NCBI GenBank assembly: GCA_963716725.1
Contig: CAVQUB010000005.1
Coordinates: 32,001-96,000, forward strand
DNA: 64,000 nt
DNA from: an uncultured delta proteobacterium
GTDB taxonomy: Bacteria; Myxococcota_A; Polyangia; Polyangiales; Polyangiaceae
Reading direction: 5' to 3'
The position numbers were made by a program, and so were the translations under genes. The notes beneath the pieces are model-generated. The model made no database searches. It was not told the DNA's origin and saw only the letters and a program-made list of their open reading frames with translations. Shown here piece after piece: positions 205 through 63,355 of this stretch (position 1 is its first letter; every line of letters starts with the position of its first letter).

Positions 205-231
205 GTCCCCCGTCGGGGACTTCCCAGGGTC
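205..231 (-). repeat. 27-bp hairpin module Q inserted in frame in the transposase (adds DPGKSPTGD)
   Basis: Minus strand GACCCTGGGAAGTCCCCGACGGGGGAC with stem GTCCCC-GACG-GGGGAC; separates HY from SGVLA. Confidence 0.8.
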
Positions 232-351
232 GTAATGGACGCGATGGGCGCGTGGGGCAGGCACCGAGGCGGCTAGCCGGAGAAGAAACGACAACGGATC
301 GAGATCGATGGCCGTGGTGCCGTCGGAGAACGGTCGCTTGAGCAGGATGCG

Positions 352-405
352 ACGCGCTTCGCGACGATCCTTGAAAGTGCCCGGAGGGGCATCCCCGAAG
401 GGGGG
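352..405 (+). repeat. 54-bp element (module Q nested in module P), in frame and antisense in the transposase
   Basis: ACGCGCTTCGCGAC-GATCCTTGAAAGTGCCCGGAGGGGCAT-CCCCGAAGGGGGG; 48/54 identical to 26348-26401; splits GLV|RILLKRP and adds 18 aa with no stop. Confidence 0.85.
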
Positions 406-498
406 CACGAGCCCACTTCCGAGTCGACGCACTCGGTCTTGCGCGAGCGGCGGGCGTAGGACGTACTTGCAGAGGGTTTCGCGAGCACGCGCGTCCTC

Positions 499-543
499 CC
501 CCGTCGGGGACTTCCCAGGAGCCGCTTCGGAACACCCGGAGGG
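499..543. repeat. Q (minus) plus P (plus) modules side by side; P is completed at 2019-2021 on the far side of the IS4 element
   Basis: CCCCGTCGGGGACTTCCCAGG followed by AGCCGCTTCGGAACACCCGGAGGG(GTG); flanked by GTCCTC direct repeats at 493-498 and 2022-2027; net 54 bp. Confidence 0.8.
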
Positions 544-2010
544 CTCATGATTGATCGGATCCCATCTGGGACCGGGCAGCTCGGAAGCCGATCTCGTAGT
601 CGAGGAGCTTCTGGTAGCCCCGTCCTAACGTTTGCCACCCGGGTGCGCCGTTGTTCTTCAGATGCCCGCCGAGTCGCGCGACAGCGAATAGCGCTTGCTC
701 AATGGTCTGCGGGACGGCCGGGAGGCGGAGCTTGAACTTTATGAGGAGCAACTGGGGCTCACTCAGGATCGTTGTTGCCGGTTGCTCGGGTGCGACGCGG
801 GCTAACGAGCGCATGAGCAACAGGCGCCAGGCGATGGGCAGGAACACGGCGAGCGCGTTGCTCAGTGCCTGATACGACTCGAGCTGTCGTTTCTCGAGAG
901 AACACCCTTGCTTGAGTGCCTTGAAGAACTCTTCGATCACCCACCGACTGCGGTAACAGTCCACGACGGTCGCGAGTTCGGCGACGGTGTCAATGGGTTC
1001 GGTAGTGAGCAGCACCCACTCGACCGACGGCTCGCCTTCTGGTGGTTGGAGTTCCCAGACTCGAACCACGTTGAGTTCGATGCTGCGCGTCTCATGTCGA
1101 GTGTTGCGGGGGCGCAGCACAGTCAAACGTTTGCCTGCCACGGCGACCTCCGCGCTCCGGGCGTTGCGAGACGGGTGCTCTTTTGCAGCATGCGCGCGAC
1201 TGCTCGGTTTCCTCGATGACACCGAGATCGTGCGAAAAAACTGCGGTTCGAGCGTTGAGATTGCACTGCGCAAGCAGATGCCTATTTCCTCAGTTACTCG
1301 GTCGTGAGCCGAACGGATGACGTAGCGCGCACCGAGTTCCTGCGCCTTCGCCAGGACCTCGAAAATGTCCGCTTCGCGGTCCATCACGTGAATGAGCGCG
1401 CTGCCGGGGCAGCGTGCATGGACGGCCTCGAGCATGGCCGGCCAGCGCAGTGATTCGCGCTCGGGGTCTCTCCGACTGACAGACCGGCGGCGCCCGCGTC
1501 CACCCTTGTGTACGAGGCGGACGTGTCGCTGTAGACCCAGAACTCCGAGTGGCACTCGCTCCTCGCCGGGAAGCACGGCCAGCGCCACGTGTGCGAGAAA
1601 CCCCTGGCTGCCGCCGGACGTGACGCCCAACCCAGCTCGCCGACTGGCGCCGCCGAGCGATACTTCGGTCGTATCGTGCGCGACGATACACAGGCCAGCG
1701 GAACTCACACGCTCCACCGTCGCCGACAGGTGCGGGTCAAGGATCTGCTCCGCGTCGAACTGCTCGTTGCGCAGGAATCGGTAGACTCCCTCAAGCTCGG
1801 ACGGAGTGTCGACAGCCTGCGGAAACCCAACACCGGGCGCCGCCATCAGTTTCTCAGCGAGCCAACCGAGCCTGTCACTGCGCCGCTTATCGCCGAGCTG
1901 AGAGCCCTCGAACTCGTCCGAAATCGACCGCCCTAACCATTCTGTTGCCGGCATTTCTCCCGTAGATCACACGCGCCGTCCGCTCGCAATGAGATGTGTT
2001 TGATCATGAG
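544..2010 (-). mobile_element. IS4-family (IS50/Tn5-like) insertion sequence, 1467 bp
   Basis: Imperfect terminal inverted repeats CTCATGATTGATCGGATC and CTCATGATCAAACACATC; 8-bp target duplication CCGGAGGG at 536-543 and 2011-2018; contains one DDE transposase gene. Confidence 0.9.
545..1954 (-). CDS. IS4-family DDE transposase (IS50 group)
   Basis: Motifs LGDKRR, YRFLRN, HDTTE, MDREAD, YRSRWVIEEFFKALK (YREK) and ARLGG..PGWQTLGRG; stop codon lies inside the terminal repeat. Confidence 0.93.
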   Translation of the reverse strand: MPATEWLGRSISDEFEGSQLGDKRRSDRLGWLAEKLMAAPGVGFPQAVDTPSELEGVYRFLRNEQFDAEQILDPHLSATVERVSSAGLCIVAHDTTEVSLGGASRRAGLGVTSGGSQGFLAHVALAVLPGEERVPLGVLGLQRHVRLVHKGGRGRRRSVSRRDPERESLRWPAMLEAVHARCPGSALIHVMDREADIFEVLAKAQELGARYVIRSAHDRVTEEIGICLRSAISTLEPQFFRTISVSSRKPSSRAHAAKEHPSRNARSAEVAVAGKRLTVLRPRNTRHETRSIELNVVRVWELQPPEGEPSVEWVLLTTEPIDTVAELATVVDCYRSRWVIEEFFKALKQGCSLEKRQLESYQALSNALAVFLPIAWRLLLMRSLARVAPEQPATTILSEPQLLLIKFKLRLPAVPQTIEQALFAVARLGGHLKNNGAPGWQTLGRGYQKLLDYEIGFRAARSQMGSDQS

Positions 2011-3008
2011 CCGGAGGGGTGGTCCTCGCCGGGAGCCGTGGTGGCCGCATGCACCGAGAAGCCGTCCTCGCGGGCGGCCAGACCGGAAACGGAGAGCTCG
2101 CCGCGATCGGGCAGTGCGATGGCGGGACGCTGCCGATGCTCGGGCCCCGCCGGAGGGTTGCCGGTGACGGCGGCGGTGGCGAGTGCGGCCAGCTCGGGCT
2201 CGCGCTCGGCGAAACCGTCGTCGGTGAGGCAGAGCTCGTTGTCTCGTTCGACGACGCCGCGACGCGCGAGAAAGTCCAAGATGCGCACGCGGGCGGCGTG
2301 CAAGAGATCTGCGACGTCGGAGTTGGAGAGCGCGGGGAGCTGGTGGAAGACGAGGCTCCCGTCATCGGTCTCGAGGAAGACTCCGTCCAACGCGAGCAGG
2401 TGCAGGTGGGGGTTGAGTCGGAGGTCGGAATTCACGCGTTGCACAGCGGTGATCGCGCCGCTCTGGCCTTTGCCCACGCGGTAGAGGTCGCGCATCGTGC
2501 GGCGGTAGAAGCCGAGCACGCTGTCGGCGAACAGTCGCGTGATCCGGCTGAGCAGCTCGCGGTCGTAGGCGACGCGGGCGCGGAGCTCGAACGGCAAGGT
2601 GAGAACCCACTGCCTGAGCGGAGCACGCGACGGCAGAACATGGTCGATCCAATTCGCCGCTGACTCGGCCATCGTTCTGCCCAGGCACGAGGGGCACCAT
2701 GCGCGTCCCTTGCAAGAAAACGCGACCAAGAGCTTCGCGCGGCACTTCGGGTCTTGGCATTGAAGAAATCCAAAACCGTGCGCCAGGATTCCGCACTCGA
2801 GGTAGCCCTCGAACTCATCCCTCACGAACGCCGGCAACAGCGCGATGATCTCTTGGTCTGCGGCGGCTTCGAGCGTGCGGTAGTTCTCGGCGACGACCTG
2901 GTAGAAGTCGCTGAGCTCCGGTCGCCGGCGTCGATATTCGACGCCGCTGCCATCCGAAGTTGCGTCCGAGATCGGCAGCGCGGCGGCCATCGCCGCGCCC
3001 GAGCGCAC
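2011..3008 (-). pseudogene. N-terminal half of IS91/ISCR-type HUH rolling-circle transposase, interrupted by the IS4 element
   Basis: YRRRRPE; Cys-rich zinc-binding segment (CGILAHGF...C...C...AFSCKGRAWCPSC); RQWVLTLP; NPHLH (HUH); FSVHAAT. The ORF stop at 2004 comes from the IS end. Confidence 0.9.
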
Positions 3009-11786: not shown

Positions 11787-11857
11787 TTCCGGCGCATGGA
11801 TTCGAACCATGATTCAGGGATTCAAAGTCCCTTGTCCTGCCTTTAGACGACGCCGGA
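11787..11857 (-). tRNA. tRNA-Gln (anticodon TTG); CCA not encoded
   Basis: Acceptor stem TCCGGCG/CGCCGGA; anticodon arm AGGGA-CTTTGAA-TCCCT; T arm CATGG-TTCGAAT-CCATG; followed by A then CCG. Confidence 0.95.
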
Positions 11858-26299: not shown

Positions 26300-27188
26300 A
26301 TGTTCGCGCGCTGGTTCTGCTCCTGCTCCGCTGTCGTGCTCGTCGTGACGCGCTTCGCGACGATCCTGGAAAGTCCCCGGAGGGGGATACCCGACGGGGT
26401 GGGGCAGGCATGGGCGGCCGAATCGGGGATTCGATCCCGAGTCACCGGCCGAGTCGACGCCTGCGCCTGCGCCTGCGCCCGCGACGACGGCGGATCCGCC
26501 GTACGCAGCCTGGCAAGGCTCGGGTCACGCCCCACCCGACGGCTACTCACCCGGATCGATTCCGGCGCCAGCGGTCGGCGCACCCATCTACGCGCGTCGA
26601 ACGGTCGAGCTCATCCCCGCGCTTGGCGTCGCCCTGGCGAACTGTCGCGCCGGCTCCCGCTCCGACAACCGCTGTGATGGCGTCGGCGGCGGCGGCATCG
26701 TCGGGTTCACCGGGCTCTGGCGAGTCACGCCCTACTTCGCGTGGGGTGGCGGCTTCGAGGTCGCGGCGTTCCGCAATCGACCCTCCGAGGAGAGTGAGCT
26801 CTCCGACGCGAGCGCTGCGGCCGTGTGGCTCGGGCTGATCGGTCGGGTGTATTTCAACGACGAAGGCGCCCTCGATCCCTACGTGCAACTCGCCATCGGC
26901 GTCGGTGCGCTCGGCACGCAGGCGACCGATCCGGCGGACGTCACCTGGGAGGAGACCGGCGCCGGACCCGCGGCACAAATTGGCGGGGGCCTCGACTTCC
27001 ACCTTTCGCGATCGCTTCGGCTCGGTCCGTCGCTGACCTACACACGGGTGTTCGTGGACAAGATCCGACGCTGTCAGGCCTCGGGCGGCGGCAAGTGCGA
27101 GGACGTGTCGAAGGACGACGACGGTCACTTGAACTCACACCTGACGCTGGCCGCTCGCCTGACCATCACTCTGGGGGGGGAGCACTGA
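26300..27188 (+). pseudogene. Outer-membrane beta-barrel-like protein with a 54-bp insert in the signal peptide and a +1 frameshift near 26425-26428
   Basis: Signal peptide MFARWFCSCSAVVLVV[insert]GQAWA-AES; a different frame continues GFDPESPAE...ELIPALG...DPYVQLAIG..GGGLDF..LGPSLTY to the stop at 27188. Confidence 0.65.
26348..26401 (+). repeat. 54-bp element (Q nested in P)
   Basis: ACGCGCTTCGCGAC-GATCCTGGAAAGTCCCCGGAGGGGGAT-ACCCGACGGGGTG; no internal stop codon in any of six frames. Confidence 0.85.
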
Positions 27189-39103: not shown

Positions 39104-41361
39104 AACGACCTCGGACGTTCTTTCGAGCTTTGTTCCGCTGGGCCTTCTTGATTCTGCCCTTCGCGCCAAGCGGCTGTTTCTTCTGGTGCACCGTCAACGA
39201 AGAGGACAGCACCATGAAGTACGACGCCGACCTGCTGAACGATTCGATGCGCACGTTGCTCCGACCGGGTGCCTGCGCGCTGCGACCGTTCACGTCGACG
39301 GATCCGGGCGCCGGCGCGGTGAAGCTCGACCTGCGCTGGTTCGAGGGCAACGGCCGTCACCTCGCCTTCGTCAGTGGTAACTTCGGAGCCACGCTGGAAG
39401 TGAGCGCGGGCGGCGAGCTGGTCGCCACGGTCGCGCCGAAGGGCGAGCTCGATTCCGCCTCGGCGGCGCCGCTCGGCTCGGGCTTCTTGGCCCTGACCTG
39501 TCGGCAGGGCGTAGCGCGTCTGGCTCGGGTCGAGAAGGCGGCCGAGCTCGCGTCGACCTCCCTCAGCGTGGCGGAGTGCGACGCCGTGGTGGGCGCCGCC
39601 GCCGCTGCATCGCACGGTGTGCTGGCGACGCGGTCAGGAGACGCCATCGAGCTCAGCAACGTGGACGAGTCCCTCACCCAGACCGGCAACCGGACGACCA
39701 ACGCAGCCGGCGCGGCGCGGTTCAGGCTCGCCGACGAGCCGAAGCCCGGCGTGCTGGCAGTGGCCTTCCAGCTCGCATCCGGAGGATGGGTGTACCGCGA
39801 GGTCGATTCGAGCGGCGCCACGCTCGTGGAGCACACGGCCAGCCTCGGCGGCGACGTCTCCGAGGGCGTTCGCGCGCGGCGCGCGGTCGGCGGGGATCTG
39901 ATCGTGGCTGCCGATGACACGCTCTCACGTTGGCGTGTGGGCAGCGATGGCCAGATCGAGAACATCCAGTCCGCTGAGCTGCCGGACATCGGCCCGAAGC
40001 AGTGGTCGGCGGAGCGTTGGTTTGGCGGCGCCATGGCAATGCAGTCCGAGCCGAACCTGGACGAACCGGGCCTCGATGTGCCGCTGGCCTATCGTTCTCG
40101 CGCGGGCGGCAGCGACGGCTTCCTCGTGCTGAAGCCGCCCACCACCCCCTGCCGCGCCGAGGACTTCTGCCGCAACGTTGGCGAGTCGTCCCTTGTGGGG
40201 GTCATCGCTCACCAGGGCAAGCCCTGGGGCATCTACGACGTCTGGGCCTGGGCTCAGGCCGTCGAATCGAAGAAGCAGAGAGCCCTGCACGCGGTCTACG
40301 CAGCGCCGCTTTTCGACAGTGCAGAGCCCGCGAACGCCCTCGGCTGCGATGGCATCGACCTCGATGCGGGCTTCGACGGGGGAAGTGGCGGCAGCGGCGG
40401 CGGCGACTCCGGTGACGCGAGCGGCGACGTCGGCGCGGATGTGAGCGCGGGCGGCAGCGGCGGCGCGGGCGGCAGCGGCGGCGGCAGCGGTAGCGGCGGC
40501 GCGGGCGGTAGCGGCGGCGCGGGCGGCAGCGGCGGCGGCAGCGGTAGCGGCGGCGCGGGTGGCAGCGGCGGCGCGGGCGGCAGCGGCGGCGCGGGTGGCA
40601 GCGGTGGCGCGACCTGTGATGCTGGGACTACCGCGCCGCTCTCGGGTAGCCCGACGCTCGTCGGCGGGTTCGGCGTGACCGTGGAGGGGTTGGCGGTGGA
40701 TGGCGCCCATGTCTACGCCAGCATGCCCAACGCGAAGACGATCTCGCGCATCGCGCTGCCGTCGGGCTCAGCCTCGGTGCTGTACACAGAGGCGAACAGC
40801 CCGAGCGGGCTCGCAATGGTCGGCACCGATTTGTATTGGGTCACCGCCGCGGGCGAACTGCGCCGCGCCCCGGCGTCGGGCCTGGGTCCGGTGACCACGG
40901 TGGCGACGGTCGGGTCGAACGCGCGCTGCCTCGCGGTGGACGCCACCCACGCCAACGTGGGACGCAACACGCTGGCGCCTATCGCGCGGGTCACGCTGTC
41001 GAACGCAGCCATTCAGAACCTCGCGACCTTCGACGCAGCTTCGGGCATCGCCATCGGCAGCAGCGGGGACCTGTTCTTCGGCCACGTGGTCTCCGACTCG
41101 CTGTGGACGGTCCCGATCTCGGGCGCGGCGGCTAGCGAGTTCGTGAAGCTCGGCACTGGCCGGCAGGTCAGGGACCTCGAGCGCGACGGCACCACCGTCT
41201 GGGTCGCGTCGCTCAGCTCGGGCGAGATCTTGCGGGTCGACGAGACGTGCAAGGTGGTGTCCACCGCGTACGGCACCACGGCCGCCGCATTGGCGCTCTC
41301 GCCCACCCACGTGTATTGGACGACCTCAGGGACGTGGCAGGTGTTCTCGTTGCCGCGCTGA
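39100..41361 (+). CDS. Large exported (lipo)protein with Gly/Ser linker and C-terminal beta-propeller-like repeats
   Basis: PSGC lipobox-like; repeats GLAVDGAHVY, GLAMVGTDLYW, LALSPTHVYW. Confidence 0.75.
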   Translation: MKRPRTFFRALFRWAFLILPFAPSGCFFWCTVNEEDSTMKYDADLLNDSMRTLLRPGACALRPFTSTDPGAGAVKLDLRWFEGNGRHLAFVSGNFGATLEVSAGGELVATVAPKGELDSASAAPLGSGFLALTCRQGVARLARVEKAAELASTSLSVAECDAVVGAAAAASHGVLATRSGDAIELSNVDESLTQTGNRTTNAAGAARFRLADEPKPGVLAVAFQLASGGWVYREVDSSGATLVEHTASLGGDVSEGVRARRAVGGDLIVAADDTLSRWRVGSDGQIENIQSAELPDIGPKQWSAERWFGGAMAMQSEPNLDEPGLDVPLAYRSRAGGSDGFLVLKPPTTPCRAEDFCRNVGESSLVGVIAHQGKPWGIYDVWAWAQAVESKKQRALHAVYAAPLFDSAEPANALGCDGIDLDAGFDGGSGGSGGGDSGDASGDVGADVSAGGSGGAGGSGGGSGSGGAGGSGGAGGSGGGSGSGGAGGSGGAGGSGGAGGSGGATCDAGTTAPLSGSPTLVGGFGVTVEGLAVDGAHVYASMPNAKTISRIALPSGSASVLYTEANSPSGLAMVGTDLYWVTAAGELRRAPASGLGPVTTVATVGSNARCLAVDATHANVGRNTLAPIARVTLSNAAIQNLATFDAASGIAIGSSGDLFFGHVVSDSLWTVPISGAAASEFVKLGTGRQVRDLERDGTTVWVASLSSGEILRVDETCKVVSTAYGTTAAALALSPTHVYWTTSGTWQVFSLPR
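40447..40608 (+). repeat. Coding tandem repeat, about 18-bp units encoding AGGSGG
   Basis: GCGGGCGGCAGCGGCGGC reiterated with variants. Confidence 0.85.
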
Positions 41362-42095: not shown

Positions 42096-44414
42096 GCGGC
42101 GTCGCCGTCGCAAGAAGGCGAGGGCGCTGGCCAAGAGCCCTGCCGCGAACCACGACGACCTGCCGCCGGGAACGGCGCTGCAGTCCGACAGAGAGTTCAG
42201 GTCTTGGTCGTAGGCGGAGGTTTCGACGTCAAGGCCGCCGCTGCCTCCGAAGCCGCTGCTGCCTCCGAAGCCGCCTCCGAAGCCGCCGCTGCCTCCGAAG
42301 CTGCCTCCGAAGCCGCCGCTGCCTCCCGTCGCCGGCGCTTTCTGCACCAGCTCGAGCTCGGTGAACAGCCCCATCTCGTCGCCCTTGTTCACGATCATGA
42401 CCCAGGCGTCCGTCGCGCCGGTGGGCACGTCGATCAACGCGTAGTTGGCCGCCCCCGTAGCGGGCTCGAAGAGCGTGGCGGCGTTCGAGCTGACTCCGGA
42501 CGAAGGATCGAACACGATCGCATCGCTGGCGAAGCGTACGAGCACCGCCGGCGAATAGGGATCGGCTTCAGGGCCGAGCTGCGAGCCGAGCGGGTGGTTC
42601 TGCCACTCGACCCGGAGCTTCTCGGTGGCCGCCTTCAAGGCCACGTGCGCCTGCAAGAGGCCGGGCGCGAAGCTCTCGCCTTGCTCGAACCCGACGTAGG
42701 GCTTGCCGGGCGAATAGAAGCCCTGGGCGATCTTCCAGTGTTTGCTCTTGAGTGGCTGGCCCTTGTACTCGAGCACGCGCTCGCAACGCGGCAGCACGCC
42801 CCGCTTCTCGAACTCCGTCTTCAGCGCGTCGGCGGCGGTCTTGCCCAGGGTCGACGTCTCGATCGCCGCTCGGAACAGCTCGGCCAGATCCTCGTAGCCC
42901 AGCTCGCCGCTGGGCGCGGCCATCATGGCGGTCACCAGCGCCGCGTCGAACTTGCCGCGGTCGGCCTCGGGCAAAGACTGCCGGGTGCTCCACAGCGCGG
43001 CCGAGAAGAAGGTCGAGTCGACGTGCACTTCGCCGGCCAGATATCCGGGGCAAGTGTCGGCGGCGTCGAGATCGCGGATCACGTCCCCGCCATAGCCGTA
43101 AGAGGTGTTCTTGGCGGCGTACTCACCCACCTGACCGTCGCCGGTCAGCGCGCTCGAGAAGTAGTCGGCGAGCCCTTCGTTCATGGCGCCGGGTGCCGGC
43201 GTTGCCCCCTGGGAATCGAGGTGCCAGTAGGGTGCAAAGTCGATGGTGCGATCGGTGAGCGCGTGCCCGAGCTCGTGGTAGACCACGTCGCCGTCGTAGG
43301 CGAAGTCGGCGTTCTTGCCTTGGCCGAAGAAGAGCCCGCCGTCGACGTTGTCGAAGAGGCCGGGGTAGGGGCTCTTCGGGCTGAAGAAAGCGTTGTCGTA
43401 GGACTGCAGCGGCAGCGCCGTGTTCTTCATCGTGGAGACGTCGCCGCTGTCCCAGCCTTGGGGAAAACGCAGGTTGGCCACCGCCGTCAACGGCTTGAAG
43501 TCGAGCTGGGGCATGCCCAATGACTCGAAGAACGCGTAAGCCTTGGCGGTGTGGAAGTACATGCTGACCTCCGCAAACTCGTCTTCGGGGGCGGTATTGC
43601 TGGCGAACTTGTAGGGGAAGTCGCCGCTCGCATCTGAGACCGCCTTGGGCAGCAGCTCGCACATGTGGATCTGGTACTTGCCGACGAGCTTCTGGGTGTC
43701 CACGCAGGTCACGGCCCGAATGCGGGAGTCCTCCAGCTTGGTCGCGCCCACCGCCAGGGAGCTCAGGGTCACCGGCGCGGCAGTGGGCGTCGAGACCGGG
43801 TTCTCTTCGTAGACGGTCGCGGCTCGATCGAAGCGCGTCGCGTCATAGGTGAGGATCAGTCTCCCCGTGTGTGCGTCGACGAGGACGACGGGCGAGCGCG
43901 GCGTGCCGGGGATCAGCCCGCGGTAGAGCACCCAGACCAGTCGCGCGGTGCCTCCGCGATCGAGCCACGCCAGCCGAACGTCGTTGGCACCGAAGTCGGC
44001 GCCGCGGGTGAACGCGTTTGCGCTCTGCGCGGCAGCGCTACGGGTGAGTGATGGCGTGTGCAAGACCGGGAAGCGCGGCGCGAGCCGAGCGGCCGCGAGG
44101 GCTGTCGGGTTGCCCCCGGCGTCGAGCACGACGCTGGCGCCTCGGGCGAGCACCGGGATGCCGTGATGCCGCTGCGCGAAGCGCACGACCCGGTGCCCGC
44201 TCGGCAGCGAGTGGGTGCGGGTGTGGACCAGGTCCAACTGGCCCGCCTCGGCCGAGCGAGACTTCAACACCTCCCGCGCGCGCGACACGGGGTCCGCCCC
44301 CTTGGGTGAGACTGGTGTGTTGGGCAGCAGCAGGCGCGGTGCCCCGCTGGCGACGGACGACAAGAGCAGCGCTGCGACGAGTGGGGTCAGGTGGGCCAAT
44401 CGGGGCGTACGCAC
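42084..44414 (-). CDS. Secreted thermolysin/fungalysin-like zinc metalloprotease with propeptide and MYXO-CTERM-like tail
   Basis: VRFAQRHHGIPV (FTP), VDAHTG (PepSY), DNAFF, HELGH, NEGLADY, GEVH; C-terminal C..-hydrophobic-RRRRR; GGAGG RBS. Confidence 0.88.
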   Translation of the reverse strand: MRTPRLAHLTPLVAALLLSSVASGAPRLLLPNTPVSPKGADPVSRAREVLKSRSAEAGQLDLVHTRTHSLPSGHRVVRFAQRHHGIPVLARGASVVLDAGGNPTALAAARLAPRFPVLHTPSLTRSAAAQSANAFTRGADFGANDVRLAWLDRGGTARLVWVLYRGLIPGTPRSPVVLVDAHTGRLILTYDATRFDRAATVYEENPVSTPTAAPVTLSSLAVGATKLEDSRIRAVTCVDTQKLVGKYQIHMCELLPKAVSDASGDFPYKFASNTAPEDEFAEVSMYFHTAKAYAFFESLGMPQLDFKPLTAVANLRFPQGWDSGDVSTMKNTALPLQSYDNAFFSPKSPYPGLFDNVDGGLFFGQGKNADFAYDGDVVYHELGHALTDRTIDFAPYWHLDSQGATPAPGAMNEGLADYFSSALTGDGQVGEYAAKNTSYGYGGDVIRDLDAADTCPGYLAGEVHVDSTFFSAALWSTRQSLPEADRGKFDAALVTAMMAAPSGELGYEDLAELFRAAIETSTLGKTAADALKTEFEKRGVLPRCERVLEYKGQPLKSKHWKIAQGFYSPGKPYVGFEQGESFAPGLLQAHVALKAATEKLRVEWQNHPLGSQLGPEADPYSPAVLVRFASDAIVFDPSSGVSSNAATLFEPATGAANYALIDVPTGATDAWVMIVNKGDEMGLFTELELVQKAPATGGSGGFGGSFGGSGGFGGGFGGSSGFGGSGGLDVETSAYDQDLNSLSDCSAVPGGRSSWFAAGLLASALAFLRRRRRSAS
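42234..42326 (-). repeat. Coding tandem repeat encoding a GGSGGF linker
   Basis: GCTGCCTCCGAAGCC-type units reiterated. Confidence 0.8.
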
Positions 44415-47876: not shown

Positions 47877-48623
47877 GTGGTAGGCTGCGCTGTGCGATCG
47901 CTCCTCGCGACTTCGGTGGCCTTTTTGGTCGCGGGACTTGGCGCGTGCACTGTGGAGCCCGTCGAGCTCGACGGAAAGCGCTGCCCCTGCGCCGGTGGCT
48001 ACGTTTGCGACTCGGCGCTCAATCGGTGCGTCTTGCCGGGCGGCGCTGGTGGCACCGGTGCGAGCGGCGGTGCTTCGCCGACAGGGGGCGCTGCCGGTGC
48101 GAGCGCATCGGGCGGGGCTGCCGGCGCCAGCGGCGCCAGCGGCTCCGGCGGGAGTGCGACGGGTGGCAATGGCGGCTCCGGCGGGAGTGCGACGGGTGGC
48201 AATGGCGGCTCCGGCGGGAGTGCGACGGGTGGCAATGGCGGCTCCGGCGGGAGTGCGACGGGTGGCAATGGCGGCTCCGGCGGGGACGGCGGATCGACCG
48301 GGATCGACTGCGGAGCCGAGAACGTCTGCGAGGCGGGTCAGATCTGCTGCTACACCCAGAGCACGAAGATCGGAGTCTGCGGCGCGCTGGGAAGCTGCAC
48401 GTCTCCGCAGGTCCCCATCAGCTGCCAGCGCCCGTCGGATTGCCCCGGGCAGATCTGTTGTGGTCAGCTCAAGATCGGTACCACCTACCTCTCGGTGAGC
48501 TGCCAGTCGTCGTGCTCTGGCTGGAGTGAGCTTGAAATGTGTACCGGGCAGCCGTCCGTGTGTTCCGGCGGCGATACTTGTCAGAGCAGCACCGCTTTGC
48601 TCAATTTCTCGTTCTGCGGCTAG
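47877..48623 (+). CDS. Cys-rich lipoprotein with tandem-repeat linker
   Basis: Lipobox LGAC; CPCAGGYVC; C-terminal CC-containing repeats. Confidence 0.75.
   Translation: MVGCAVRSLLATSVAFLVAGLGACTVEPVELDGKRCPCAGGYVCDSALNRCVLPGGAGGTGASGGASPTGGAAGASASGGAAGASGASGSGGSATGGNGGSGGSATGGNGGSGGSATGGNGGSGGSATGGNGGSGGDGGSTGIDCGAENVCEAGQICCYTQSTKIGVCGALGSCTSPQVPISCQRPSDCPGQICCGQLKIGTTYLSVSCQSSCSGWSELEMCTGQPSVCSGGDTCQSSTALLNFSFCG
48141..48284 (+). repeat. Perfect 33-bp tandem repeat, 4 copies plus a partial copy (GSGGSATGGNG)
   Basis: GGCTCCGGCGGGAGTGCGACGGGTGGCAATGGC at 48141, 48174, 48207, 48240. Confidence 0.95.
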
Positions 48624-62561: not shown

Positions 62562-63355
62562 GCGCGACCGTTTCGCGCCAAGACCACCTCGTGACTCGCA
62601 AAGAACCCTCAGCCGACTACGTGCGGGAGTTCGCCGCCAGTATGTCGCGTGTTTATCGCGCTGCCCACGGCGAGGCCGAGATCCGCGAGCATGCCGGGGC
62701 CGCCACGCGCCGCGGTGGCGCGGCGGTCAACGTAGAGTTGCTCGCACACACCCACGACGCGCTTCGTGACACCCGAAGGGGTGGAGCGCCTGGCGTGATG
62801 TGCGTGGTCGCCGACGACCGTCCCGGTCTCTTGGCGACTATCAGCGCGGCATTTGTCCTGGCGGGGCTCGATGTCATCGACGCTACCGCCCACACACGTA
62901 AGACCTCCGGCGGGCGGCGAGAAGCCGTCGACATGTTCTGGGTGCGCTACACCGAGCCCGCCAAGCGATCCGAGCGCGTGGCTGCCGCAGACGCGGAGGC
63001 CGTTGCGCGCGTGCTCGTCGATTTGCTCGAAGGCAGGCTCGACCGCGAGGTGGCCTCGAGGCGCTCGGTGGGCCCGGCGCCCAAGGCCAGCGAGACCAAG
63101 GTGAGGTTTGTCGAAAACGAAGACGGCGAGCTGGCGACGCTCGAGGTCGAGACCGACGACCGCTCCGGACTCCTGCTCGCGCTCAGCCAGGCGCTCTTCG
63201 ATCAAAAAGTGCAGATCGTCGAGTCCGCGGTGAAGACCGAGGGCGCGCGCGTGCTCGATCGCTTTCAGATCGTCGAGCTCGACGGCAAGCCCATCCAGCC
63301 CCAGCGACGGCTGGAGATCCAGGTTTCGGTGTTGTCTGCGATTCAGGTGGGGTGA
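62558..63355 (+). CDS. Stand-alone tandem ACT-domain protein resembling the GlnD C-terminus
   Basis: DDRPGLL...AVDMFWV and LEVETDDRSGLL..LS...VKTEGARVLDRF; no nucleotidyltransferase or HD domain. Confidence 0.8.
   Translation: MSATVSRQDHLVTRKEPSADYVREFAASMSRVYRAAHGEAEIREHAGAATRRGGAAVNVELLAHTHDALRDTRRGGAPGVMCVVADDRPGLLATISAAFVLAGLDVIDATAHTRKTSGGRREAVDMFWVRYTEPAKRSERVAAADAEAVARVLVDLLEGRLDREVASRRSVGPAPKASETKVRFVENEDGELATLEVETDDRSGLLLALSQALFDQKVQIVESAVKTEGARVLDRFQIVELDGKPIQPQRRLEIQVSVLSAIQVG
62757..62783 (+). repeat. 27-bp module P inserted in frame (adds DALRDTRRG)
   Basis: ACGCGCTTCGTGACACCCGAAGGGGTG, equal to the 54-mer without its central Q; hairpin CACCC-GAAG-GGGTG. Confidence 0.8.

Follow-up and report, generated by a model that had tools for sequence, protein, structure and literature searches.

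Small palindromic repeats of the repetitive extragenic palindromic (REP) type are described by Di Nocera et al. (2013; PMC3733652) as carrying G-T pairs in their stems and as lying mostly outside genes, with some found in open reading frames (ORFs), where they encode 20-82 residues. In the same account RPE-4 and RPE-6 are classed as CGTC-type REPs, the CGTC families are without a dedicated transposase, head-to-tail dimers are absent or rare in the GTAG and CGTC REPs, strand-specific G-T pairing is used to argue for an RNA role of these repeats, and the REPs of E. coli are noted to bind gyrase; its main text contains no occurrence of the strings Myxococc, Sorangium or Haliangium. The hairpin repeats of the REPIN-RAYT system (REP doublets forming hairpins, and REP-associated tyrosine transposases) are thought (Nunvar 2010, PMC2817692; Bertels and Rainey 2011, PMC3116915) to move as single-stranded DNA (ssDNA) via an HUH enzyme. 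REPs also figure as specific targets of insertion sequences (ISs) in the account of Tobes and Pareja (2006; PMC1525189), which includes ISPpu9, ISPpu10, ISPa11, ISPsy8, ISRm19 and ISRm22. Here we describe a hairpin element that came to attention as two 54-mers in a 64,000-nt stretch of an uncultured delta proteobacterium of the Polyangiaceae (assembly GCA_963716725.1, contig CAVQUB010000005.1, positions 32,001 to 96,000), hereafter the window. We suggest, with moderate confidence, that it is a modular, lineage-specific REP-like repeat of the Polyangia whose hairpins are kept for the sake of ssDNA folding during copying or movement.

Build of the repeat and compensatory change in its stems

The 54-mers lie on the plus strand at positions 352-405 (copy 1) and 26348-26401 (copy 2) of the window, constitute a single repeat family of 91% identity in a repeat search of the window, and begin with 20 bases that occur there exactly twice, against 0.06 occurrences expected from shuffles. 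The initial annotation, made from the letters and ORF translations, had proposed that four of their six differences form two compensated stem pairs and that a fifth falls in a loop, which the sequence confirms. The mismatches are at element positions 21, 28, 39, 42, 48 and 53: positions 28/39 are G-C in one copy and C-G in the other (stem GTSCCC-GGAG-GGGSAT), positions 42/53 are C-G and A-T respectively (stem MCCC-GAMG-GGGK), of the two remaining sites, 48 falls in a loop and 21 in a spacer. Simulation of six random substitutions on copy 1 gave at least two compensated pairs in 0.09% of 200,000 trials, for a structure that was defined post hoc.

The element is built from a 12-nt head, a number (n) of 27-nt units and a 15-nt tail hairpin. 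The head, (A)CGCGCTTCGYG, also written (G)ACGCGCTTCGYG, contains a 4-bp mini-hairpin; each unit joins a 15-nt spacer, ACGAYCCTKGRAAGT, to a 12-nt stem-loop of the form NCCN-GNNG-NGGN; and the tail reads AY-NCCC-GNNG-GGGN'-G. With n=0 a 27-nt short form results and with n=1 the 54-mer long form. Single units are also found alone, and arrays reach about 11 units (contig C4:157612-157942), being homogeneous within an array and different between arrays. These arrays are runs of contiguous 27-nt units without spacers between the repeats, and are in this respect not CRISPR arrays. All the module lengths (12, 15 and 27 nt) are multiples of three.

The source genome (7.9 Mb, 68% G+C, 35 contigs) contains about 110-135 loci of the family. 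An nhmmer search with a seed of 12 copies gave 199 matches at E<=10, among which 15 span the full length with E<1e-12, and the head motif has 103 matches, with short, long and array forms all represented; after merging there are 134 loci. Strict modules number 146 and are spread over 107 loci; the reversed genome, used as a control, gives 6. A covariance model, as suggested by the initial annotation, was built from 22 long forms and finds 86 matches in the genome at E<=0.01, which is a lower bound because only 150 of 11,269 candidates were scored. In the window it recovers copy 2 (26345-26406, 85.5 bits), copy 1 (349-410, 84.1 bits) and further matches at 62754-62788 and, on the minus strand, 205-233, with weak matches at 496-520 (minus strand) and 517-551. 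An Rfam scan of the window gave no match at the element, its sole match at gathering score being a tRNA at 11787-11857 on the minus strand.

Maintenance of the stems by compensatory change is apparent in sets larger than the original pair. In an alignment of the 22 long forms (13 from this genome, nine from three congeners), 97.9% of the 280 stem cells in the three proposed helices pair, and two-sided changes are seen at column pairs 31/42 (CG 12, GC 6, AU 1), 34/39 (CG 17, UA 2) and 45/56 (AU 17, CG 3). The covariation score of this alignment is 0.191, compared with 0.093+-0.012 for shuffled alignments, none of 500 of which reached it, and with at most 0.044 when the partners are slid. An exact-pattern scan in which the 3' base of the outer tail pair was left free yielded 130 tail copies in distinct contexts from other genomes, and in these the outer pair is A-T in 77, C-G in 36, G-C in 6, G-T in 6, T-G in 1 and unpaired in 4. 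The next pair outward, the fifth, is C-G in 44, T-A in 35, T.G in 49 and T-C in 2; the 49 T.G pairs contrast with C.A in 0/44, and the wobble is thus restricted to the written strand. G.U pairs are also present in the long-form alignment, at pairs 6/14 and 29/44. Since the wobbles are confined to the written strand, one particular strand seems to be the one that folds, and the functional state is likely to be a strand-specific single-stranded form, either ssDNA or RNA.

Units were also counted by their spacer alone, which gave 116 units against none in the control. A perfect 4-bp stem is present in 100 of these and falls into six types: CCCT/AGGG (49), CCCC/GGGG (17), ACCC/GGGT (15), GCCC/GGGC (13), CCCA/TGGG (5) and CCCG/CGGG (1). 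The GNNG loops noted in the initial annotation reappear where no loop was imposed: GGCG, GGAG, GAAG, GACG or GGGG closes 105 of the 116 units, and every frequent perfect-stem type occurs with one of these five sequences. The claim that secondary structure rather than the encoded peptide is conserved likewise holds in these larger, independent sets, in which the stems covary, and the DNA is read in six frames and both orientations (see below). A different outer helix, put forward by RNAalifold (columns 20-23 with 52-55), shows no double-sided changes and was rejected in favour of the tail hairpin, whose pair 45/56 covaries.

Insertion sites, distribution and neighbouring elements

The element has been inserted as blocks at many unrelated sites. 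At five genic sites this genome has the insert, whereas all or most of the congeners aligned there have none, and one further empty site was seen in a paralogous copy of a 180-nt repeat; the inserts at the polymorphic sites measure 27, 54 or 231 nt and are all in frame. Copy 2 corresponds to a 54-column gap at the orthologous site in 4/4 aligned congeners (G001, G002, G003 and G005). Judging from the N-termini of the orthologues, it can be read as sitting among the codons for a signal peptide, in a gene that starts with an ATG at 26300 and specifies a secreted protein of about 250 residues. As assembled, this gene (26300-27050) shifts frame a few tens of bases or less beyond the downstream side of the insert, where it has about 13 extra bases relative to the congeners, and is either a real pseudogene or affected by an assembly indel. 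Elsewhere, a gene whose CBM9 domain was assigned by Pfam has 27 nt that are absent in 5/5 congeners, and an ArsA-type ATPase gene contains a single 27-nt unit that is absent in four of five congeners, the fifth having a different 54-nt insert at the same site. A short form consisting of head and tail (62757-62783, plus strand; covariance-model match 62754-62788, 37 bits) adds 27 nt in frame to the gene of an ACT-domain protein (identified by Pfam), where it is read as DALRDTRRG and is represented by a gap in 4/4 aligned congeners. The largest insert, of 231 nt (8x27+15), is read as eight TPSGTFKDR repeats in the gene of a TPR protein; at this site three congeners have 109 nt and G006 has 105 nt, and one congener possesses an independent 27-nt short form nearby in the opposite orientation.

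The DNA of the element is read in all six frames, giving peptides such as DALRDTRRG, ATRFAIPEGV, RRASR..., PPLRVSRSAS, PPVGDHEARR and TPSGVTQRV, and among 20 intragenic copies inspected 13 are sense and seven antisense to the host gene. The peptide is not conserved, and the element has no required orientation. It is read through by long ORFs, among them one Y2_Tnp ORF of 599 residues that remains open with six modules. As every module is a multiple of three nucleotides, genic insertions preserve the reading frame and persist where the host sequence is tolerant. On the 5' side, ACGCGC is preceded by G in nearly every case, and GG opens several of the 3' flanks. Two names given at first to host ORFs, RNase E/G-like and DinG-like, were dropped as neither segment has a Pfam match.

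Intragenic copies appear to be a minority, and many loci sit in islands rich in transposase genes. A codon-usage classifier, applied without gene annotation, placed 8/107 loci cleanly within genes compared with 563/1500 random sites; the classifier is conservative, calling 37.5% of random sites in-gene, and these fractions are to be read as relative only. No host-like coding signal was present on either flank at 54/107 loci, compared with 458/3000 random sites. One copy, in sense orientation, fills the spacer between two co-directional genes (C8:298114-298178).

The strict short-form pattern has 23 matches in this genome and is found in five of six other species of the genus (0-32 matches each, with 11 in G002 and 32 in G006). 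It is present in 2/18 other genera of the family and 0/16 other families of the order, and the reversed pattern gave no match. A scan of 185,579 species' genomes in the public collection returned at least 119 matching stretches; the titles among the 80 matches listed are Polyangiaceae, Polyangiales, Myxococcales, 'uncultured delta proteobacterium', Nannocystis, Sandaracinaceae and Labilithrix metagenome-assembled genomes (MAGs), and one 'Pseudomonadota' MAG. The long form is largely confined to the genus, with 15 copies detected by BLAST in this genome; three congeners have at least 6, 2 and 1, and the 60 other genomes of the family yielded one weak partial match. We found no description of such a repeat family for Polyangia or myxobacteria in a literature search that left most subscription journals outside its reach.

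The host of copy 1 is an IS91-like Y2_Tnp transposase pseudogene on the minus strand, in which the copy is in frame and antisense; the minus-strand ORF at 1-432 of the window reads through it. An N-terminal/core fragment of this pseudogene is recognised at 2004-2498 on the minus strand (Pfam Y2_Tnp, E 2.9e-4), and further modules are hosted at 205-543. These include a single 27-nt unit, in frame and sense to the pseudogene (205-233, minus strand, 30.6 bits; pattern module 207-228), read as DPGKSPTGD within the ORF translation ...RVHYDPGKSPTGDSGVL..., and a second single unit with the hairpin CCCCGACGGGGG (496-520, minus strand; pattern module 498-519), which is a weak covariance-model match with E 0.043. 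Another 54-mer is carried by the same pseudogene just upstream of the window.

A degenerate short form in this pseudogene is interrupted by an IS. Its left part (520-543, plus strand) ends within the tail hairpin CACCC-GGAG-GGGTG, as judged from the sequence and the IS junctions, and its right part (2011-2021, plus strand) consists of a second copy of CCGGAGGG followed by GTG. The first copy of this 8-bp target duplication, at 536-543, adjoins the left end of the IS, and the two copies together rebuild a tail hairpin. The IS itself (544-2010, minus strand, 1467 bp) is of the IS4/Tn5 type, with terminal inverted repeats CTCATGAT... and a transposase ORF at 545-1954 that matches the Pfam families Tnp_DNA_bind, DDE_Tnp_1 and Dimer_Tnp_Tn5. 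All 17 junctions of this IS found in the genome (9 left and 8 right) fall at the same place in tail hairpins, in either orientation, and the duplicated 8-bp target, CCGNNGGG, is the core of the tail hairpin. From these junctions the transposase appears to be hairpin-specific, the tail hairpin being its only observed target. Several elements have an 8-nt internal duplication at the spot where the IS inserts, and these may be footprints of IS excision.

Larger repeats that contain the element were also observed. One with a CCCT/AGGG unit array is present at six loci with near-identical coding scores in the flanks (C5:605040-605246, C21:51030-51209, C33:25633-25784, C2:193795-193919, C3:37333-37403 and C6:47676-47746), where the arrays measure 207, 180, 152, 125, 71 and 71 nt respectively, a variation between paralogous loci like that of variable-number tandem repeats. 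Another resembles a MITE, a transposable element in miniature with inverted repeats: it is about 180 nt long, 93-100% identical between C8:149397-149576 and some 15 other loci, and holds a short-form element, with one copy lacking the 27-mer and several having an extra 8-nt duplication in the hairpin. In G006 an inverted pair of short forms surrounds about 117 nt of lower-GC sequence (L195:286-456, on contig C20 of that genome), which looks like a composite MITE with the 27-mer as terminal inverted repeats, and composite MITE-like forms of the element may therefore exist. The tandem repeats of the window at 40361-40642, 42234-42338 and 48106-48303 (periods 9/18, 12/18/30 and 33 nt, all multiples of three) are rich in GGC/GCG codons and probably represent Gly/Ser/Ala-rich low-complexity protein segments that are not related to the hairpin family.

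Candidate enzymes and rival explanations

If the hairpins serve ssDNA folding, one DNA strand would have to fold in single-stranded form before an enzyme acting in trans could copy or move the element, new copies would have arisen only from those whose hairpins are intact, and arrays would have grown via local slippage. The best candidate on hand for such an enzyme is an IS91-like Y2 HUH transposase, a RAYT being unlikely, and the route through ssDNA and a trans-acting nuclease is our best-supported guess and not a result. Fourteen matches to Y2_Tnp are present in this genome, and matches occur in all five congeners searched. In G002 a short form is separated from the Y2 domain by 613-616 nt in four IS copies, several element matches overlap Y2 matches in G001 and G003, and many copies lie in or beside Y2 genes in G000-G003. 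An IS91-like unit of 4.2 kb, at 99% identity between C13:126927-131150 and C8:411851-416074, contains an intact Y2_Tnp gene (520-545 residues); the 54-mer in this repeat sits inside a gene that is integrase-like as named from its translation alone. A more far-reaching proposal would make the 27-nt modules the smallest known HUH substrates: the mini-hairpins of head and tail would be recognised on one strand of ssDNA by IS91-like Y2 enzymes in place of RAYTs, which would copy or paste blocks in trans, and the module lengths of 12, 15 and 27 together with the stop-poor sequence would have evolved to colonise coding DNA, the mobilisers' own genes included, in a 'Y2-REP' partnership comparable with that of RAYT and REP. 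The occurrence of Y2 in 5/5 congeners, the copies in and beside Y2 genes, the strand-specific wobbles and the lack of target duplication all fit this proposal, which as a whole we regard as speculative and rather unlikely.

A number of observations weigh against the main reading, that of a REP-like repeat kept by ssDNA folding. No enzyme is tied to the element, and its enrichment at Y2 and other transposase genes would be explained equally well by tolerance of insertions in dispensable DNA together with IS amplification. The element was considered as the end of an IS91-like transposon and this was rejected, since the sharp end common to eight copies is GCGCGTAAGGCAATCG..., unlike the element; partial copies of the 4.2-kb unit share this end. 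G004 has Y2 genes and no strict-pattern match. The orientation of the element bears no clear relation to GC skew (31/33 against 27/16, in what is a weak test on 35 contigs), and the replication-strand bias expected of ssDNA transposition is therefore not seen. Comparison of filled and empty sites revealed no clear target duplication or motif beyond an ambiguous 1-3 nt. Folding energies of the written strand, whether as DNA or RNA, show no excess stability over shuffles (z -0.6 to -1.5), so that the case for structure rests on covariation, and the minimum-energy fold of copy 2 differs from the proposed two hairpins. Finally, the copies are paralogues in few subfamilies and many are tandem units; the number of independent compensatory events is for that reason small (about 5-6 types of stem in the units and 3-4 in the tails), and significance is overstated by the shuffle statistics.

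The search for Y1 enzymes counts on the same side, and it bears also on the possibility of a classical REP-RAYT system, in which REP- or REPIN-type repeats are mobilised by a Y1 HUH transposase. Short GC hairpins at more than 100 loci that serve as IS targets are what such a system would produce, and this genome has, besides one weak match, one good match to Y1_Tnp in a RAYT-like gene outside the window (C5:165574-165909, E 5.8e-20; region C5:165400-166200, L007:1379-2168) that is flanked by inverted hairpins. These hairpins, however, are of a different sequence from the element (GCCCGCCC-loop-GGCGGGC and CCCCGGGAT..ATCCCGGGG), and no Y1_Tnp match was found in four of the five congeners searched, including G002 and G006, all of which bear the element; on these two grounds the RAYT link was rejected. 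In addition, no GTAG or CGTC abuts the stem, and head-to-tail arrays dominate over inverted doublets. The Y1 gene of this genome is thus not flanked by the same repeats in the manner of a REPtron, and a 2-kb interval between inverted copies in a relative, inspected for a REPtron-like gene, contained only spurious-looking Arg-rich frames and one frame that is RHS-repeat-like by eye. We consider it very unlikely that the element belongs to a system of this kind.

The initial annotation had allowed that the hairpins might be an RNA structural signal, and RNA roles have been proposed for many REPs. The hairpins would then act in transcripts as terminators, as stabilisers against 3'-exonucleases or as translational or processing signals, in keeping with G.U-type wobbles on one strand only and with the sense copy that fills the spacer between co-directional genes on C8. 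Against this, seven of the 20 intragenic copies are antisense and 13 sense, many copies lie inside ORFs and not after them, the hairpins are not followed by a T-run, the Rfam scan is empty at the element, and coding signal is missing from both sides at about half of the loci, far more often than at random sites. The presence of both orientations within genes speaks against an RNA role, which we judge unlikely. Wobbles on one strand are at the same time A.C mismatches on the other, which makes for a poor fit to cruciforms and so argues against a site used by the host in double-stranded form, that is, a cruciform or a protein-binding palindrome (for a nucleoid protein, gyrase or a recombinase) that was spread by recombination and is kept for the host. 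The apparent recognition of the tail core CCGNNGGG as DNA by the IS4-type transposase would suit a site of this sort, as would the gyrase binding of E. coli REPs (PMC3733652). However, stems of 4-6 bp are very short for extrusion, and the range from 0 to 32 strict matches among species of one genus, with polymorphic sites, is what would be expected of selfish DNA, and we think a host site improbable. The least credible account, to which we give almost no weight, is a protein-level repeat, either a conserved peptide motif or a chance similarity in GC-rich coding DNA. Both 54-mers do lie in coding or formerly coding DNA and the module lengths are multiples of three, but the same DNA is read in six frames and occurs also outside clearly coding DNA, so that frame usage contradicts this account; moreover, the element is missing from orthologues, and reversed-sequence controls give 0 to 6 matches.

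Place of the element among described repeats

The family is a clean case, from nature, of selfish DNA under structural constraint in genomes that are large and free-living, and its presence or absence at orthologous sites within one genus shows recent insertion. Since the module lengths are all divisible by three, conserved proteins (with CBM9, ArsA-type ATPase, ACT, RCC1 and TPR regions) are lengthened by 9 to 77 residues. For annotation, the blocks inflate or split gene calls in Polyangia MAGs and mimic coding repeats, and the array lengths, which vary between paralogous copies, could serve as strain-typing markers. The family further draws attention to an IS4-type transposase that is specific for a hairpin and has a defined target of 8 bp, and, if its mobilising enzyme were found, would bear on how RAYT-less REP families of the CGTC type spread.

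We class the family as a REP-like small palindromic repeat that is lineage-specific to the Polyangia and has a new build. The 27-nt short form and unit are short repeats with stem-loops of 4-6 bp, and they are dispersed in high copy number (107 loci on many contigs). Like the REPs described in Di Nocera et al. 2013 (PMC3733652), the element has units of 20-40 nt, a GC stem-loop, more than 100 copies and G-T pairs in its stems; it seems to lie mostly outside genes, with a minority in ORFs adding residues and clusters encoding tens of residues, and, as in the CGTC families of that account, no dedicated transposase gene was found for it. It does not fall within the GTAG/CGTC superfamily, as the consensus starts GACGCGCTTCG and the CGTC of the complement is at the far end of the head mini-hairpin. 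In contrast to the GTAG/CGTC REPs as they are described there (PMC3733652), it has no abutting GTAG or CGTC, its stems are of 4-6 bp and not of 8-9 bp or more, and it displays head-unit-tail modules, dominant direct 27-nt arrays and module lengths that are multiples of three. With REPIN-RAYT systems (Nunvar 2010, PMC2817692; Bertels and Rainey 2011, PMC3116915) it shares the formation of within-genome families with subfamilies, whereas no RAYT is flanked by the element and inverted doublets are not its main form.

Its behaviour in genes is shared with the Rickettsia palindromic elements, selfish palindromic DNA located in frame within genes whose orthologues are without the insert. RPE-1, which is about 100-150 bp long, is reported by Ogata et al. 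(2000) to be inserted in frame in Rickettsia genes, and the present element behaves similarly in the CBM9, ArsA-type, TPR, ACT and secreted-protein genes. The likeness is one of behaviour only: the modules here are of 27 nt, the hosts are large and free-living and not reduced, and both sequence and host are judged unrelated. Palindrome-associated transposable elements (PATEs) are minimal elements of the IS200/IS605 type that are moved by a Y1 HUH TnpA. Like them, the element is tiny, carries a hairpin at either end, has a structure specific to one strand and shows no evident duplication of its target; it differs in that no conserved target tetranucleotide and no cognate TnpA were found for it; to our knowledge, functional IS200/IS605 ends are also far longer than 27 nt. 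Nor does the basic form resemble a MITE, as head and tail are not mutual inverted repeats, there is no clear duplication, and no parent IS with matching ends was found. The IS of the window has its own parallel in the REP-targeting ISs described in Tobes and Pareja 2006 (PMC1525189), since all of its copies occupy one position in a repeated hairpin. It belongs to the IS4/Tn5 type, duplicates 8 bp of its target (CCGNNGGG) and is set beside the published REP-targeting ISs by behaviour and not by family.

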